This document shows positions 28,519 to 39,360 of a stretch of 64,000 bases of DNA, one piece after another (within the stretch, counting starts at the first letter, position 1; every line of letters starts with the position of its first letter). The stretch comes from Escherichia phage vB_EcoM_ECO78. The DNA lies in the sequence record PP526941.1; one strand, written 5' to 3'. A model generated the notes under the pieces. That model had not been told where the DNA came from. It worked only from the letters and a program-made list of their open reading frames with translations, and did no database searches. The position numbers were made by a program, and so were the translations under genes.

Positions 28519-28992
28519 TTATTTGAATGATTTGACGTACTGAATAGAGCCTTTACTATTCACGAAAGCGATTTTACCATTTTTATTATACATGGTAGCA
28601 GTACGCTGATAGCCATAAGTTTGTTTACCAGATTGATAACCAACTAATGCGAAATTATCTTCACCCATTTTATTCTGTTTAGCGCGAATACGTTCATGAC
28701 CGTGTGCCATAAGAACCTTAGCATCACCAGTTGAAATTGATCTACGAGTTTTTTCATCTTCAACTGTATTAACAAAGTCGTCAAATGAATCAAATTTAGC
28801 ATGGGATTTATTATACAGTTTTCCATCTACTGCATAATTATATCCCTGTACATCCATCTCAACTTCTGTACCATCATCCAATACAGCAGTGATTTTTTGA
28901 CCTTTTTTAAATTTCAAAAGATCAGTAAAAGATTCAGCAATAATTTGAGAATTAATAGCTGCTTCAGTGATAAATTCTTGATATGTTTTCAT
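28519..28992 (-). CDS. Internal-protein-like (capsid targeting sequence) protein, 157 aa
   Basis: N-terminal CTS MKTYQEFITEA typical of T4 internal proteins; SD AAGGAAA. Confidence 0.65.
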   Translation of the reverse strand: MKTYQEFITEAAINSQIIAESFTDLLKFKKGQKITAVLDDGTEVEMDVQGYNYAVDGKLYNKSHAKFDSFDDFVNTVEDEKTRRSISTGDAKVLMAHGHERIRAKQNKMGEDNFALVGYQSGKQTYGYQRTATMYNKNGKIAFVNSKGSIQYVKSFK

Positions 28993-29476: not shown

Positions 29477-30279
<803 letters not shown>

Positions 30280-33611: not shown

Positions 33612-33875
33612 TTATTTCATATTATTGAAATATTCTTCTGCGATTTCGTCGTTATCATGGTAAACTTTAGAAGACAGTTTAACATAACCTTCAGCAGCGA
33701 ACATGTTAATCACAACCTTTACAGTATACCACTGACCGTCTTCATTACCCATTACTGCATAGGTTTCAAACATCGGATGGTCAGGACCGATAACTTTAAT
33801 ATCATTCACCGTACGACCAAAATCTTCTGAAACACATTTCATAAAGAAGTTGAACAGTTCGCCGTAATTATCCAT
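33612..33875 (-). CDS. Hypothetical protein (87 aa)
   Basis: SD GGAGAAT before ATG (MDNYGELF...); track ORF begins at TTG. Confidence 0.55.
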   Translation of the reverse strand: MDNYGELFNFFMKCVSEDFGRTVNDIKVIGPDHPMFETYAVMGNEDGQWYTVKVVINMFAAEGYVKLSSKVYHDNDEIAEEYFNNMK

Positions 33876-34082: not shown

Positions 34083-34107
34083 AAAAAGCCCTATCATTTA
34101 GATAGGG
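34083..34107 (-). terminator. Rho-independent terminator after 187-aa IP gene
   Basis: CCCTATC/GATAGGG 7-bp stem followed by CUUUUUGG on minus transcript. Confidence 0.6.
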
Positions 34108-34115
34108 ATTTAAGA

Positions 34116-34679
34116 TTATTTGCTTAGTTTAGTTATTATAGCTTCGGCAGCAGCTTTTAGCTTAGATGCGGTGTTAATACGATTTTTAATTTCAGTATAC
34201 GCATCGCCAAGAACATCAAGGCTATCGGAATAAACACTTACACTATTGCGTTCGCTATTTGAAATAGAACCTTTAGTTTTACGATCAAAATCAGTGTACA
34301 CGTCTTGAAGATCACGGGCTGCCTTCTTTGCATCATCCAATGCATCAAGAGCTTTATTCAAAGCATTAACATATTTTTTAGTATCGAACATATTCTTAGA
34401 AATTTTAACAGGTGCACGTTCAGGAGTAGCTAAGGCAGATTTAGGAACCTGAGCGCCTGATGCTAATTTCTTAGAAATTTTGAAAAATGCTTTATTGAAT
34501 TTATTTTCTTGACTCATCGTAAAAGAACTATTATCAATGTTATACATTTCAATAGCTTTAGCTTTCCACTTAAGAAAATCGCCACGGTCTTTTGGGTCTA
34601 ATTGGAAGAATACTTTAGTAAGATCTGCTTCAGATGGTAATTTTGCTGCTTCGGTTAAAAATTCGGCGTAGGTTTTCAT
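34116..34679 (-). CDS. Internal-protein-like protein (CTS), 187 aa
   Basis: CTS MKTYAEFLTEAA; own SD and terminator. Confidence 0.7.
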   Translation of the reverse strand: MKTYAEFLTEAAKLPSEADLTKVFFQLDPKDRGDFLKWKAKAIEMYNIDNSSFTMSQENKFNKAFFKISKKLASGAQVPKSALATPERAPVKISKNMFDTKKYVNALNKALDALDDAKKAARDLQDVYTDFDRKTKGSISNSERNSVSVYSDSLDVLGDAYTEIKNRINTASKLKAAAEAIITKLSK

Positions 34680-34762
34680 TTAAAATCCTTGAAATAATTT
34701 ATTGGTTATTAATTATTTATCACGTTGTTATATGTAACAGTATTATCCGAGCGATTCAAACT

Positions 34763-34790
34763 AAAAAGCCCCAACCTTTCGGCTGAGGCT
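34763..34790 (-). terminator. Rho-independent terminator (repeat copy 1)
   Basis: GCCUCAGCC-GAAA-GGUUGGGGC + U5 on minus transcript; near-identical to copy at 35317-35345. Confidence 0.6.
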
Positions 34791-34797
34791 AAGAATG

Positions 34798-35271
34798 TTA
34801 TTTGATTTGTTTAGCAGACCAAATGCGGTCTTTAATAATTTTTTGGATGTCTTCAACATATTCAAGAGAGTGAACATGTGGGTTATCTTTGAAACTATAA
34901 GCACGAGCTAACTTTTGGCCTTCGGTTTTGATTACTAAAAGCTCTTTAAGGATAGCTTCATATTTAGCGATAATGCCTTTAACAATATTTTTTTCTTGTG
35001 CAGCTTTAGGATCTGCTTTAGGAGCAGGTTTACCCGAAGCCTTTGCAAAAGCAGCTCCAGTAGCAACTAAACTTTTCCAAGCCATACTAACTGCATTCCC
35101 TGTAAATCCTTCTGCTTTCATATCGCGAGCAAATTGGAATCGTGATTCATCGGAAGCATCTTTATAGGAATATTTACCCGCGGCAATGGCAGCTTTTGCA
35201 ACAGCTTGAATTTCGGTGCTAGATGCTTCATTTAACACCGCTTCATTTAAAAATTGAGCATATGATTTCAT
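34798..35271 (-). CDS. Internal-protein-like protein (CTS), 157 aa
   Basis: CTS MKSYAQFLNEA; Ala/Lys-rich; late promoter upstream. Confidence 0.7.
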   Translation of the reverse strand: MKSYAQFLNEAVLNEASSTEIQAVAKAAIAAGKYSYKDASDESRFQFARDMKAEGFTGNAVSMAWKSLVATGAAFAKASGKPAPKADPKAAQEKNIVKGIIAKYEAILKELLVIKTEGQKLARAYSFKDNPHVHSLEYVEDIQKIIKDRIWSAKQIK

Positions 35272-35307
35272 CTTATTTCCTGTTTTAATTCGTGGTTTTA
35301 ATATACT

Positions 35308-35315
35308 TATTTATA
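35308..35315 (-). promoter_or_regulatory. Late promoter TATAAATA
   Basis: Exact TATAAATA on minus strand about 37 nt upstream of IP gene ATG. Confidence 0.5.
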
Positions 35316-35316
35316 C

Positions 35317-35345
35317 TAAAAAGCCCCAACCTTTCGGCTGGGGCT
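35317..35345 (-). terminator. Rho-independent terminator (repeat copy 2)
   Basis: GCCCCAGCC-GAAA-GGUUGGGGC + U5 on minus transcript, downstream of the structured RNA region. Confidence 0.6.
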
Positions 35346-35389
35346 AAGCCTTGCGGCAACCTTGTCGGGGTTCCACCTGCTAAGGCAAG

Positions 35390-35656
35390 TGTTTGTACGA
35401 AACGCCGGGATTCGAACCCGGTTACCAAGCAGTTGACGCTACTCAATATTTTTAAAAGGCCATATCTCGACCATATCCGAACGTTCCGTCAAAAACGCTA
35501 CTCGGCTTACGGCAAAGATATTTCCTCGAATCGATAATTCGGTGCGCCGTTTCTGCTGTGATGTAAGGGGGCATTAACCGATCGCAAAGATTTGTTAATG
35601 CCAGTCCTTACCCAGGGAACATCAGTCCGACGACTTACCGGTAGCGACCCGGTTTC
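35390..35656 (-). ncRNA. Putative small stable RNA(s), tRNA-like 3-prime module (T4 species 1/2 RNA-like)
   Basis: About 265-nt ORF-free, GC-richer segment at the distal end of the tRNA cluster; hairpins ACCGG/CCGGT and CATTAAC/GTTAATG; T-arm-like CCGGGTTCGAATCCCGG with acceptor-like CGGAACG/CGTTTCG. Confidence 0.4.
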
Positions 35657-36007
35657 TTAATATTCTTTTAAAGCATCAATCTGTTCACGGCGTTTACGCC
35701 ATAAATCAATTGCTTCATACGCAGATTCAGCATTTCGAATTAGCCGACATTTATATAAAGACTTATGATTTTGATATTGTGTAGATAACGGAATTTTATC
35801 TAAAAGGTCTTTACGTTCAAAATATTCGTAACCATCTAAACCAAATGAACGATTTTTAAGAAATTGCCAATGTCCAAATTCGTTTTCAACATAAACATAA
35901 TCTGCATGCTGATAAAGTAAATTAATTACACGTTCAGAAATAACAGTATCATTATGATTAAAATAGAATGTTAAATCATGAACTACTAAATAAACATTAC
36001 CTTTCAT
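35657..36007 (-). CDS. Hypothetical protein (116 aa) inside the RNA gene cluster
   Basis: ATG 18 nt downstream of tRNA-Arg 3-prime end with SD GAGGAAAAT. Confidence 0.55.
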   Translation of the reverse strand: MKGNVYLVVHDLTFYFNHNDTVISERVINLLYQHADYVYVENEFGHWQFLKNRSFGLDGYEYFERKDLLDKIPLSTQYQNHKSLYKCRLIRNAESAYEAIDLWRKRREQIDALKEY

Positions 36008-36025: not shown

Positions 36026-36101
36026 TGGTCGAGGCAGTAGGGATCGAACCTACGACCCAGGACTTAGAAGGTCCTTGCTCTTCCTTCTGAGCTATGCCCC
36101 G
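36026..36101 (-). tRNA. tRNA-Arg (anticodon UCU)
   Basis: 76 nt; cloverleaf by eye: acceptor CGGGGCA/TGCCTCG, anticodon loop CTTCTAA, T-loop GGTTCGATCC, encoded CCA. Confidence 0.8.
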
Positions 36102-36105
36102 TAAT

Positions 36106-36181
36106 TGGGGTGACCGATGGGAGTCGAACCCATGACTACGAGAATCACAATCTCGAGTTCTACCAACTAAACTACGGCCAC
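36106..36181 (-). tRNA. tRNA-His (anticodon GUG)
   Basis: 76 nt; acceptor GTGGCCG/CGGTCAC, anticodon loop TTGTGAT, T-loop GGTTCGACTCC, encoded CCA. Confidence 0.75.
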
Positions 36182-36294
36182 ATTAATACCTACTCCAACA
36201 ATCAAGATGTCTTCACACGAAATTAAGAGAAGAGTGATCAGTTCAACCCTATAATCGCGTCAAGTAGATATTAATGTGACAGTTGTCACAAATT

Positions 36295-36369
36295 TGGCGG
36301 ACGTGATAGGATTCGAACCTATAACCAATCGCTTAACAGGCGATCGCTCTGCCATTGAGCTACACATCC
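36295..36369 (-). tRNA. tRNA-Asn (anticodon GUU)
   Basis: 75 nt; acceptor GGATGTG/CACGTCC, anticodon loop CTGTTAA, T-loop GGTTCGAATCC, encoded CCA. Confidence 0.8.
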
Positions 36370-36373
36370 AAAT

Positions 36374-36460
36374 TGGTGGGGAGTGATGGAGTCGAACCAC
36401 CCGAGTCGCAATGACAATGGATTTACAGTCCACACCGCTACCTCTACGGGATAACTCCCC
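36374..36460 (-). tRNA. tRNA-Tyr (anticodon GUA), long variable arm
   Basis: 87 nt; acceptor GGGGAGT/ACTCCCC, anticodon loop CTGTAAA, T-loop GGTTCGACTCC, encoded CCA. Confidence 0.75.
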
Positions 36461-36473
36461 TTAATTCTTAATT

Positions 36474-36548
36474 TGGTGGCCCTGGGTGGAATTGAACCAC
36501 CATCTGGCGATTATGAGTCGCTTGCTTGAACCTTCCAGCTACAGGGCC
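36474..36548 (-). tRNA. tRNA with anticodon CAU (Ile2-like or Met)
   Basis: 75 nt; anticodon stem-loop GCGACTCATAATCGC resembles tRNA-Ile2 (lysidine type); T-loop GGTTCAATTCC; encoded CCA. Confidence 0.7.
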
Positions 36549-36556
36549 AAATTTTC

Positions 36557-37039
36557 TTATTTTATGTAATATTTATTTAAAAACTTTCTAGCTTGAGTAT
36601 GGCTAACATTTATAGCGTTTGCATAATTTTTAATAAAACCTCGTTCATCCATATTAAAATTTTCTAATATTTTTAATCGTCTAGTTATCTCATCTTGACT
36701 TAAGGTACTTGCATTATTTTTAGAAATTTTTTCTAAGGACTGTGCCGAGTGTTTTCTACCATTAAAATTAAAATTTTTAGATTTTGGAGGAAATCTAGCA
36801 TTTAATCTCGCATCTTTTGTATTTTGATTATTAGTTGCGCAATATATGTTATTTAATGAATATGGTCCTTTATCGCCGAAACGGCACATGCAGTATTCAT
36901 GACCCTTTCTTCCACGCTTATCATAATTTCCCGTCGATTTCCACCAATGCAGCCATTCATCAAAAGTTAAATTCCATTCAATGTTTCTACGTATAGCAGA
37001 ATTCCGCTGAGAAATATATTTTGCATAATCTTCTTTCAT
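36557..37039 (-). CDS. Putative HNH-like homing endonuclease / DNA-binding protein with NUMOD3 motif
   Basis: 160 aa; motif GRKHSAQSLEKISKNNAS (NUMOD3-like), C-terminal HTH-like tail, N-terminal His/Cys/Asn cluster; inserted between tRNA-Ser and the CAU tRNA. Confidence 0.55.
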   Translation of the reverse strand: MKEDYAKYISQRNSAIRRNIEWNLTFDEWLHWWKSTGNYDKRGRKGHEYCMCRFGDKGPYSLNNIYCATNNQNTKDARLNARFPPKSKNFNFNGRKHSAQSLEKISKNNASTLSQDEITRRLKILENFNMDERGFIKNYANAINVSHTQARKFLNKYYIK

Positions 37040-37086
37040 CACAAATTTCTCTACTTATTCAATACACTGAGCTAAATCAGCAAAAC

Positions 37087-37176
37087 TGGCGGAGGCGATA
37101 GGATTTGAACCTATGAGTCGCCGGAGCGACTGCCGGTTTTCAAGACCGGTGCATTAAACCACTCTGCCACGCCTCC
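37087..37176 (-). tRNA. tRNA-Ser (anticodon UGA), long variable arm
   Basis: 90 nt; acceptor GGAGGCG/CGCCTCC, anticodon loop CTTGAAA, T-loop GGTTCAAATCC, encoded CCA. Confidence 0.8.
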
Positions 37177-37178
37177 AG

Positions 37179-37252
37179 TCTCCATACAAGGATTTGAACC
37201 TTGGACCTCCTGATCCCAAATCAGGCGCTCTACCAAACTGAGCTACACGGAG
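37179..37252 (-). tRNA. tRNA-Pro (anticodon UGG)
   Basis: 74 nt; D-arm GCTCAGTTTGGTAGAGC, anticodon loop TTTGGGA, T-loop GGTTCAAATCC; CCA not encoded. Confidence 0.8.
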
Positions 37253-37262
37253 TAAATTAAAT

Positions 37263-37336
<74 letters not shown>

Positions 37337-37341
37337 AAATT

Positions 37342-37428
37342 TGGTGCGAGAAGTGGGACTCGAACCCACAAGGAAATCATTCCGCAGCATTTTAAGTGCT
37401 GTGCCTTTACCAATTTGACCATTCTCGC
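37342..37428 (-). tRNA. tRNA-Leu (anticodon UAA), long variable arm
   Basis: 87 nt; acceptor GCGAGAA/TTCTCGC, anticodon loop CTTAAAA, T-loop GGTTCGAGTCC, encoded CCA. Confidence 0.8.
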
Positions 37429-37429
37429 G

Positions 37430-37502
37430 CTGGGAATAAAGGACTCGAACCTTTGCATCCTGGAATCAAAATCCAGTGCCTTACCAACTTGGCTAATTCC
37501 CA
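37430..37502 (-). tRNA. tRNA-Gln (anticodon UUG)
   Basis: 73 nt; acceptor TGGGAAT/ATTCCCA, anticodon loop TTTTGAT, T-loop GGTTCGAGTCC; CCA not encoded. Confidence 0.8.
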
Positions 37503-39072: not shown

Positions 39073-39360
39073 TTACAAAAGATTTTTAGCAATAATCTTG
39101 AGATGTGCCGCAGAAATGTGTTTAGCTTTAAACAACGCAGTTTCTTCAGCAGGAGAGATAACGATTGTAGCACCATCCTTTTTAGCAGACCACCCATCAC
39201 CTAGGTAAACAGTACCTTTGATTTCTTCGCCATCAACCAAACTAATCATTGGTTTACCTTCTCGTCCTTTATTTGCTTTAATAACTTCAGAAGTAAGAGT
39301 AGCTTCAGTAATAGTAGAAACCGGGATAGTTGTAGAAGTAAATTCTTTGAAAGTTTTCAT
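39073..39360 (-). CDS. Internal-protein-like protein at the ipI locus (CTS), 95 aa
   Basis: CTS-like N-terminus MKTFKEFTSTT; same size and position as T4 IPI but different body sequence by recall. Confidence 0.6.
   Translation of the reverse strand: MKTFKEFTSTTIPVSTITEATLTSEVIKANKGREGKPMISLVDGEEIKGTVYLGDGWSAKKDGATIVISPAEETALFKAKHISAAHLKIIAKNLL

Follow-up and report, generated by a model that had tools for sequence, protein, structure and literature searches.

Introduction

Repoila et al. (1994; cited in PMC3012670 and PMC12373910) reportedly described that a conserved late promoter and leader precede numerous unrelated proteins of T-even phages, which are shuffled as cassettes. Here we analyzed a stretch of 64,000 nucleotides from Escherichia phage vB_EcoM_ECO78 (sequence record PP526941.1; the whole stretch is called the window below), in which two adjacent open reading frames (ORFs), ORF157 (157 aa) and ORF187 (187 aa), lie between the homologue of the T4 stable RNA rnaC and the gene e.8. 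They probably encode two additional T-even internal proteins, which would be expressed late, packaged into the head, cleaved by the prohead protease gp21 and injected, most likely as anti-defence factors.

Internal proteins act ahead of any phage gene expression. The three internal proteins of T4 each disarm one type IV restriction enzyme variant: Ip1, Ip2 and Ip3 are inhibitors of one GmrSD variant each, without cross-protection (PMC12373910). The same study refers to 'the two Ip loci' and to 'at least 10' Ips; the targets of most other Ips are unknown. As a functional precedent, IPIII is required on ECOR17. A preprint (10.1101/2025.11.20.689424) ties Bas37_0260, a leader-bearing protein of the ipI locus, to the type IV restriction systems of E. 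coli K-12. In the experiments of Mullaney and Black, the first 10 residues were enough for packaging, and their mutagenesis assigned targeting chiefly to residues 4 and 7 and processing to residues 8 and 10; gp21 cleaves after the Glu within L/I-x-E (reviewed in PMC9026906).

The T4 proteins IPIII and IPII are the closest described systems. Their leader agrees with those of ORF157 and ORF187 at positions 1, 2, 4, 7 and 10, has L or I at position 8 and is followed by Ala after the cleavage site. The mature proteins are of similar size and basic, and the genes, polymorphic among T-even phages, are not essential. In contrast, there is no likeness in sequence or predicted fold beyond the leader, the genomic site differs (rnaC-e.8 for ORF157 and ORF187, denV-e for ipII and ipIII), and Ip2 and Ip3, unlike the proteins described here, have known GmrSD variants as targets. 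Moreover, ipII and ipIII are preceded by an early-type promoter and stem-loop, whereas a terminator and a late box lie upstream of ORF157 and ORF187. Phage P1 packages its Dar antirestriction proteins into the head and injects them. The concept of capsid-loaded, DNA-delivered anti-restriction is the same, but lineage, proteins and loading mechanism are unrelated and P1 Dar serves as an analogy only.

The cassettes of the ipI locus (ip4 to ip10) resemble those at rnaC-e.8 in that unrelated coding bodies behind a late-type promoter and leader are gained, lost and exchanged between close relatives. The kind of element, polymorphic T-even internal-protein cassettes, is thus already known; the locus is new relative to the two Ip loci of PMC12373910, beyond which rnaC-e.8 forms a third site. 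The PeSL cassettes of RB49 and phi1 (Arbiol et al. 2010, PMC2839356) likewise are single accessory ORFs flanked by repeated stem-loop and promoter recombination modules. They differ by their strong sigma-70-type early promoters, whereas the rnaC-e.8 cassettes carry the late box TATAAATA. On the minus strand of the ORF157 and ORF187 spacers no sigma-70-like site was reported, and the two-sided arrangement that characterizes a PeSL was not found.

Results

Two genes missing from T4 occupy the rnaC-e.8 site

The window is 94-96% identical to hundreds of Tequatrovirus (T4-like) genomes and identical to none. Its orientation is the same as in the T4 GenBank record, which places the genes under study on the minus strand: ORF157 at 34798-35271 and ORF187 at 34116-34679, exactly where and with the N-termini with which the original prediction had placed them. 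They are flanked upstream by the counterpart of rnaC and rnaD, two stable RNAs of T4 (35346-35657, minus strand), and downstream by the e.8 orthologue (33612-33875, minus strand; 87 aa, phrog_2678), after which e.7 and e.6 follow.

Colinearity of T4 with the window extends up to 34107 and resumes at 35313, so that T4 lacks about 1.2 kb of it. The colinear block 35313-35657, which also covers the first of the hairpins described below, is 93% identical to T4. The site is likewise empty in T2 and T6, and in all three phages it consists of ~235 bp with one hairpin. The claim that T4 has no such gene at this position was borne out by colinearity on both sides.

Both N-termini carry the determinants of capsid targeting and gp21 cleavage

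The N-termini had been taken for capsid-targeting sequences from their appearance, and we aligned them with those of T4 and with the prohead protease site. ORF187 (protein start MKTYAEFLTEAA) has the leader MKTYAEFLTE↓AA and ORF157 (protein start MKSYAQFLNEA) the leader MKSYAQFLNE↓AV, with residues 1-10 encoded at 34650-34679 and 35242-35271, respectively (arrows mark the predicted cleavage site here and junctions further below). T4 IPII and IPIII start with MKTYQEFIAE↓A. M1, K2, Y4, F7, L8 and E10, followed by Ala, are kept in both ORFs. The targeting positions Y4 and F7 are identical to those of IPII and IPIII, and the gp21 motif L/I-x-E is present at positions 8-10 (LTE↓AA in ORF187, LNE↓AV in ORF157). 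The four experimentally important positions (Y4, F7, L8 and E10) thereby match in both proteins, and the alignment supported the proposed leader function with regard to targeting as well as cleavage.

The strict pattern MK[STA][YF]..[FLIY][ILVM].E was found at the start of 4 of the 592 window ORFs (M-start, at least 40 aa), compared to ~0.004 matches expected by chance as estimated from residue frequencies. A looser leader pattern added the IpI orthologue, giving five ORFs. ORF157 has a second in-register site after E15 (LNE↓AS), and ORF187 has a single L/I-x-E site, after E10. Removal of 10 residues leaves proteins with computed values of 16.0 kDa and pI 9.50 (ORF157) and 19.7 kDa and pI 9.54 (ORF187); the corresponding values are pI 9.56 for IPII and 20.4 kDa and pI 9.65 for IPIII. 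Some ORF157 alleles (L005:4298-4759, coding for 153 aa; P0016; P0019) exhibit the leader MKTY(A/N)(Q/E)FLMTEAS, in which the spacing is L-x-x-E rather than that of the gp21 motif L-x-E.

The 5′ end and the late box might instead be a shared recombination and expression module of products that are not packaged and act in the cytoplasm late in infection. A conserved stretch of ~70 bp comprising late promoter and leader is said to have been proposed by Repoila et al. in 1994 to drive gene shuffling, and the cassette junctions at rnaC-e.8 do fall in repeated sequence. However, the leader is conserved at the protein level. The leader codons of ORF157 and ORF187 show synonymous differences at Y4, A5 and A11, some of them at conserved residues, which argues for selection on the peptide and not only on a DNA recombination site. 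Moreover, even the relatives from Klebsiella and Yersinia phages retain every targeting and cleavage position (MKFKEFLAE↓AS), and an ORF157 orthologue was detected in virions. We therefore regard unpackaged, cytoplasmic products as quite improbable and favour packaging into the head.

An ORF157 orthologue is associated with virions of phage fD1

Purified virions of Yersinia phage fD1 (phiD1) have been analyzed using LC-MS/MS, and the ORF157 orthologue g140 was scored as particle-associated (PMC8309999, Table S3). This protein is 97.5% identical to ORF157, which fD1 carries alone at the rnaC-e.8 site. The other two leader-bearing proteins of fD1, g129 and g146, were also particle-associated, while the neighbours g138 and g139 (e.8) were not (PMC8309999). 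For phages fPS-65/fPS-90 and Sfk20, the papers report no mass spectrometry of virions. The leader determinants, the cassette organization and, for the ORF157 orthologue, the presence in fD1 virions partly support the original prediction of internal proteins.

Both genes are organized as putative promoter-gene-terminator units

An exact late promoter had been claimed for one of the two genes, and a T4-type late-promoter box, TATAAATA, was indeed found at 35308-35315 (minus strand), 36 nt upstream of the ORF157 ATG (-43 to -36). It overlaps the cassette junction GGTAT↓AAATA. ORF187 is preceded by a late-promoter-like box, GATAAATA, at 34714-34721 (minus strand), 34 nt upstream of its ATG. Both genes possess AGGA-type ribosome-binding sites; that of ORF157, read from the sequence, is AGGAAA at 35276-35281 (minus strand). 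What matters about the box is its conserved position: [T/G]ATAAATA directly follows the hairpin upstream of genes of the ORF157 type or of the type coding for a 205-aa protein (see below) at 11 of 13 related loci, which represent two genera, and this module of hairpin and late box is common to Tequatrovirus-like and Mosigvirus-like loci.

Three hairpins resembling intrinsic terminators were found on the minus strand. Hairpin 1 (AGCCCCAGCC-GAAA-GGTTGGGGCT + T5; 35322-35345; -20.6 kcal/mol, z -3.4) is located downstream of the rnaC homologue and is the counterpart of the single hairpin in T4, T2 and T6. Hairpin 2 (AGCCTCAGCC-GAAA-GGTTGGGGCT + T5; 34767-34790; -17.6 kcal/mol) ends the ORF157 cassette. 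Hairpin 3 (CCCTATC-TAAAT-GATAGGG + T5GGTATC; 34089-34107; -10.5 kcal/mol) ends the ORF187 cassette; its stem is unlike those of hairpins 1 and 2, and its tail and junction match T4. The near-identical hairpins 1 and 2 are each part of a 40-nt direct repeat with 93% identity between the copies (34754-34793 and 35309-35348). The terminator GCCCCAGCC-GAAA-GGTTGGGGC + T5, said to follow each gene, is real and present in two copies, but these copies bracket ORF157 and ORF187 ends in a different hairpin.

To define the units, the junctions of T4, fD1 and the window were compared on the transcribed strand. T4 reads ...GGTTGGGGCTTTTTGGTAT↓CTAAGCC..., straight into the e.8 upstream region. In fD1, the junctions are ...GGGGCTTTTTGGTAT↓AAATA...ORF157...GGTTGGGGCTTTTTGGTAT↓CTAGGCC.... 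The window contains a second, added unit, which ends ...GATAGGGCTTTTTGGTAT↓CTAGGCC.... According to this comparison, the unit consists of late box, ribosome-binding site, leader gene, hairpin and T5GGTAT. Units are joined at ...GGGGCTTTTTGGTAT, and the late box overlaps the junction. ORF157 and ORF187 are both putative promoter-gene-terminator units without T4 counterpart, which agrees with their description as self-contained cassettes. Upstream of ipII and ipIII, T4 (locus L003, 2220-2310 and 2917-3006) displays early-type elements, GTTTACA ... TATATT, that overlap palindromes; in these regions there is no TATAAATA box, unlike the terminator and late-box module at rnaC-e.8.

The site is occupied in most relatives and both genes are under purifying selection

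ORF187 is intact in 164 phage records, with at least 95% identity in all save one (85%). ORF157-type genes are found in 511 phage records, some of which are Klebsiella-type phages with partial matches only. Taking the 596 phage records with e.8 as a rough denominator, ORF187 is present in about one quarter and ORF157-type genes in well over half of them. A new locus, as originally proposed, therefore holds relative to T4 but was overstated in view of this distribution: rnaC-e.8 is a third, probable internal-protein site, occupied in most sequenced relatives and empty in T4, T2 and T6.

The states of the locus were deduced from 17 loci (16 fetched loci and the window). Besides the empty site, we found an ORF157-type gene alone (~770-795 bp, with two hairpin copies in Tequatrovirus-like loci) and ORF157 together with ORF187 (~1470 bp). 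RB14 is another phage with both genes. The interval comparison suggested in the original prediction hence placed the empty T4, T2 and T6 sites next to relatives with one or both genes. Mosigvirus-like loci carry a gene for 154 or 157 aa, either by itself or accompanied by another ORF (in L010, a membrane-like DUF7338 gene), or alternatively the DUF7338 gene and a leader-bearing gene for 205 aa. The DUF7338 gene (L009:3636-4190; equivalents in L010 and L011) codes for 184 aa with a hydrophobic N-terminus and no capsid-targeting leader, which indicates that the site takes cargo beyond ip genes.

The empty site contains a single copy of the repeat, the filled site two. This arrangement fits either insertion by way of a circular intermediate, the route suggested for PeSL cassettes (PMC2839356), or deletion between direct repeats in T4, T2 and T6. 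Gene units would be gained or lost by recombination at the repeated junction of terminator and late promoter.

Pairwise ratios of nonsynonymous to synonymous substitutions (dN/dS) among the fetched orthologues ranged from 0.01 to 0.17 at dS up to ~0.2, and the Mosigvirus-like allele gave ~0.09 at dS >1. ORF157 and ORF187 are real genes. Frameshifted or truncated copies in some genomes (G29, OE5505; P0017, P0020, P0043) might point to non-functional remnants or chance reading frames. However, intact ORFs exist in hundreds of genomes, ribosome-binding sites, promoters and terminators are in place, and peptides of an orthologue have been detected. Intact orthologues, dN/dS values and these peptides effectively refute remnants or chance frames. 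The defective copies fit dispensable accessory genes, and with a site that is empty, singly or doubly occupied or filled by frameshifted copies among relatives, the two genes are both dispensable and polymorphic. Variation at this site comes about via presence or absence of genes and replacement of alleles.

ORF157 and ORF187 fall in a PHROG without an internal-protein label

ORF157, ORF187, the 154-aa allele and the 205-aa protein match phrog_2280 ('unknown function') over the whole profile. The named Ips fall into other PHROGs, all labelled internal protein (phrog_4363, 7857, 5341, 3155 and 3499). Beyond the leader, no homology to Ip1, Ip2, Ip3, Ip4 or the RB69ORF127c type was found, and weak cross-matches were mostly confined to the N-terminal leader region. 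ORF157 and ORF187 align with each other over the leader only, also in a profile-profile comparison. Full-length alignments with both (E 1e-5 and 3e-8) were obtained for the 205-aa Mosigvirus protein from the same site. A kinship of ORF157 and ORF187 is suggested by this bridging protein and the shared PHROG, but only tentatively.

An exhaustive phmmer search with ORF187 returned six representatives only, among them a distant relative, P0099, of 204 aa with 31% identity. A match to a repetitive protein of 869 aa in the phmmer results was regarded as spurious. Pfam gave only noise below threshold (Cytochrome b562 at 17 bits with a cut-off of 30; DUF5053), NCBIfam nothing for either ORF, and a sequence search of the PDB with both ORFs nothing below E 0.07. 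The names of ~55 named members of the three clusters in the databases are 'hypothetical' or 'uncharacterized'. One cluster member is labelled 'isopenicillin N synthase-like dioxygenase', which we rejected since nothing supports the label. The rnaC-e.8 family is not named internal protein by PHROGs, Pfam, NCBIfam or the GenBank and UniProt names examined, and literature searches for phrog_2280 and for the RB14 and RB32 ORF names returned nothing. No sequences of ip4 to ip10 were found in the supplements of PMC12373910, and either gene may be related to, or the same as, one of the numbered genes ip5 to ip10.

AlphaFold2 models reached predicted local distance difference test scores of 73.6 (moderate) for ORF157 and 58.2 (poor) for ORF187. 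Both models display the same layout of leader helix, small helical N-domain, low-confidence Pro/Ala/Lys linker and long C-terminal helical hairpin. In a Foldseek search of PDB and BFVD, the ORF157 model matched, besides itself, only generic helical hairpins with E >0.7, and no fold was assigned. In the relatives from Klebsiella and Yersinia phages, the N-domain of ORF157 is conserved and the C-terminal half is replaced.

These features bear on the possibility that both proteins are packaged by their leader without having a specific host target, as basic DNA-associated proteins that fill the head or neutralize charge or as accessory components of the scaffold core. Both mature proteins are basic (pI 9.5). 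Both possess the Pro/Ala/Lys-rich linker, most marked in the 205-aa relative (AKPAKAPVAKPAAQPKVAAPKPTPKPEPVK), which recalls histone-H1-like or TonB-like segments, and the remainder is predicted to form simple helical hairpins with no enzyme-like fold. Selection is purifying and strong, not diversifying. On the other hand, the basic proteins IPII and IPIII were long seen in this way, and yet each inhibits a specific GmrSD enzyme (PMC12373910). Furthermore, the genes are dispensable, as T4, T2 and T6 do without them, which speaks against a general structural need. A general DNA-associated role is a live rival, although we consider it rather unlikely in comparison with an anti-defence function of injected internal proteins.

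The window encodes five leader-bearing proteins: ORF157, ORF187 and three that are recognised in databases, namely the IpI orthologue (39073-39360; looser pattern), Ip4 (IpIV, DUF7412; 28519-28992, minus strand; leader MKTYQEFITE↓AA) and a 93-aa 'internal head protein' of the RB69ORF127c type (29477-29758, minus strand; Ser after the cleavage site). The T4 ipII/ipIII locus is differently occupied in the window, with the 93-aa leader gene on one side of denV and Ip4 on the other. The 93-aa gene has no promoter of its own, as its start overlaps (ATGA) the stop codon of the lysozyme gene e. Ip4 and the RB69ORF127c type have the same kind of leader as ORF157 and ORF187, and ORF157 and the 93-aa protein share the second in-register ...LNE↓A. 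They differ in being named in databases and placed in 'internal protein' PHROGs of their own, and they lack similarity to ORF157 and ORF187 after the leader.

Proposed function of ORF157 and ORF187

According to the model that we favour, each gene would be transcribed late from its own late-type promoter directly after a hairpin, and transcription would stop at the next hairpin. The 10-residue N-terminal capsid-targeting sequence would bring each protein into the scaffolding core of the prohead, where gp21 is predicted to cut after Glu10 (L-x-E, then Ala) and possibly to trim ORF157 at E15, too. The predicted mature proteins start at Ala11, with AAKLPSEADLTK for ORF187 and AVLNEASSTEIQAVAK for ORF157, or with ASSTEIQAVAK if E15 is used. 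Being basic (~16.0 and 19.7 kDa, pI 9.5), they would stay with the DNA in the head and enter the next host. There they would most likely block a defence against incoming glucosyl-hydroxymethylcytosine DNA, such as type IV restriction by GmrSD or another class. This anti-defence role is a candidate function by analogy with Ip1 to Ip3.

Several observations weigh against this model. Of the ~277 gene products of fD1, 113 were scored as particle-associated in the virion preparation, among them an HNH endonuclease and rIIB (PMC8309999). With clearly non-structural products among the 113, detection of g140 is modest evidence, supportive but not decisive. Virion support covers the ORF157 orthologue only, and packaging, cleavage and injection of ORF187 are predictions from its sequence. 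ORF157 contains a further L-x-E at residue 110 inside a predicted helix, and a cut there, if made, would destroy the protein. The box of ORF187, GATAAATA (AATAAATA in other phages), is not consensus, and with 11 occurrences against 11.1 expected the octamer TATAAATA is not enriched in the AT-rich window. Selection within each allele is strongly purifying and does not follow the pattern of a fast arms-race divergence. No similarity in sequence or fold to known anti-restriction proteins, IPI* included, was found, the fold comparison by Foldseek having covered the ORF157 model. Finally, ip4 to ip10 gave no reproducible new GmrSD pairings in the work of Silas et al. (PMC12373910), so that it is not yet established that every Ip is a GmrSD inhibitor.

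More tentatively, phrog_2280 as a whole could mark a third Ip hot-spot of Tequatrovirus and Mosigvirus whose members would be injected inhibitors of defences that are not covered by the known Ips, with a common role of the conserved N-domain and target specificity residing in the variable C-terminal hairpin. We consider this extension possible but doubtful. Its targets may be active GmrSD clusters without inhibitor among ip1 to ip10 (Silas et al.) or another sensor of incoming DNA.

The finding lends itself directly to tests, and a T4 specialist would not be surprised by it. No inhibitor is known for several active GmrSD variants, and the leader-bearing proteins of phrog_2280 are ready-made candidates, for which T2, T4 and T6 represent natural nulls in gain-of-function tests. 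The finding is relevant as well for predicting the host range of therapeutic T4-like phages. In annotation, phrog_2280 would receive the new label of internal protein family.

Neighbouring genes

In the order of transcription, the region comprises the tRNA cluster, a 116-aa ORF, rnaD/rnaC, ORF157, ORF187, e.8, e.7 and e.6. No Rfam family matched the rnaC and rnaD homologues. The G29 record (MK327940.1) annotates a 'tRNA-Lys(ttt)' within the rnaC-homologous region (L001, 4396-4489); at the equivalent position of the window, ARAGORN and Rfam found no tRNA. The cluster at 36026-37502 (minus strand) contains ten tRNAs (Arg, His, Asn, Tyr, Met, Ser, Pro, Gly, Leu and Gln). The tRNAs for His, Asn, Tyr and Met do not exist in T4, and the Ile and Thr tRNAs of T4 are missing from the window. 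An ORF for 161 aa with a GTG start (36557-37042, minus strand) is flanked by tRNA-Met and tRNA-Ser, at approximately the place of the homing endonuclease gene segB in T4; T2 has an ORF of 402 nt at the same position. The 161-aa ORF had no match in Pfam or NCBIfam.

The 116-aa ORF (35657-36007, minus strand; phrog_3355, unknown function) separates the rnaD homologue from tRNA-Arg. The gene is absent from T4 and T6, as rnaD abuts tRNA-Arg there, and it is present in T2, G29 and vB_SsoM_113. This position looks like another presence/absence site within the cluster of stable RNAs and tRNAs.

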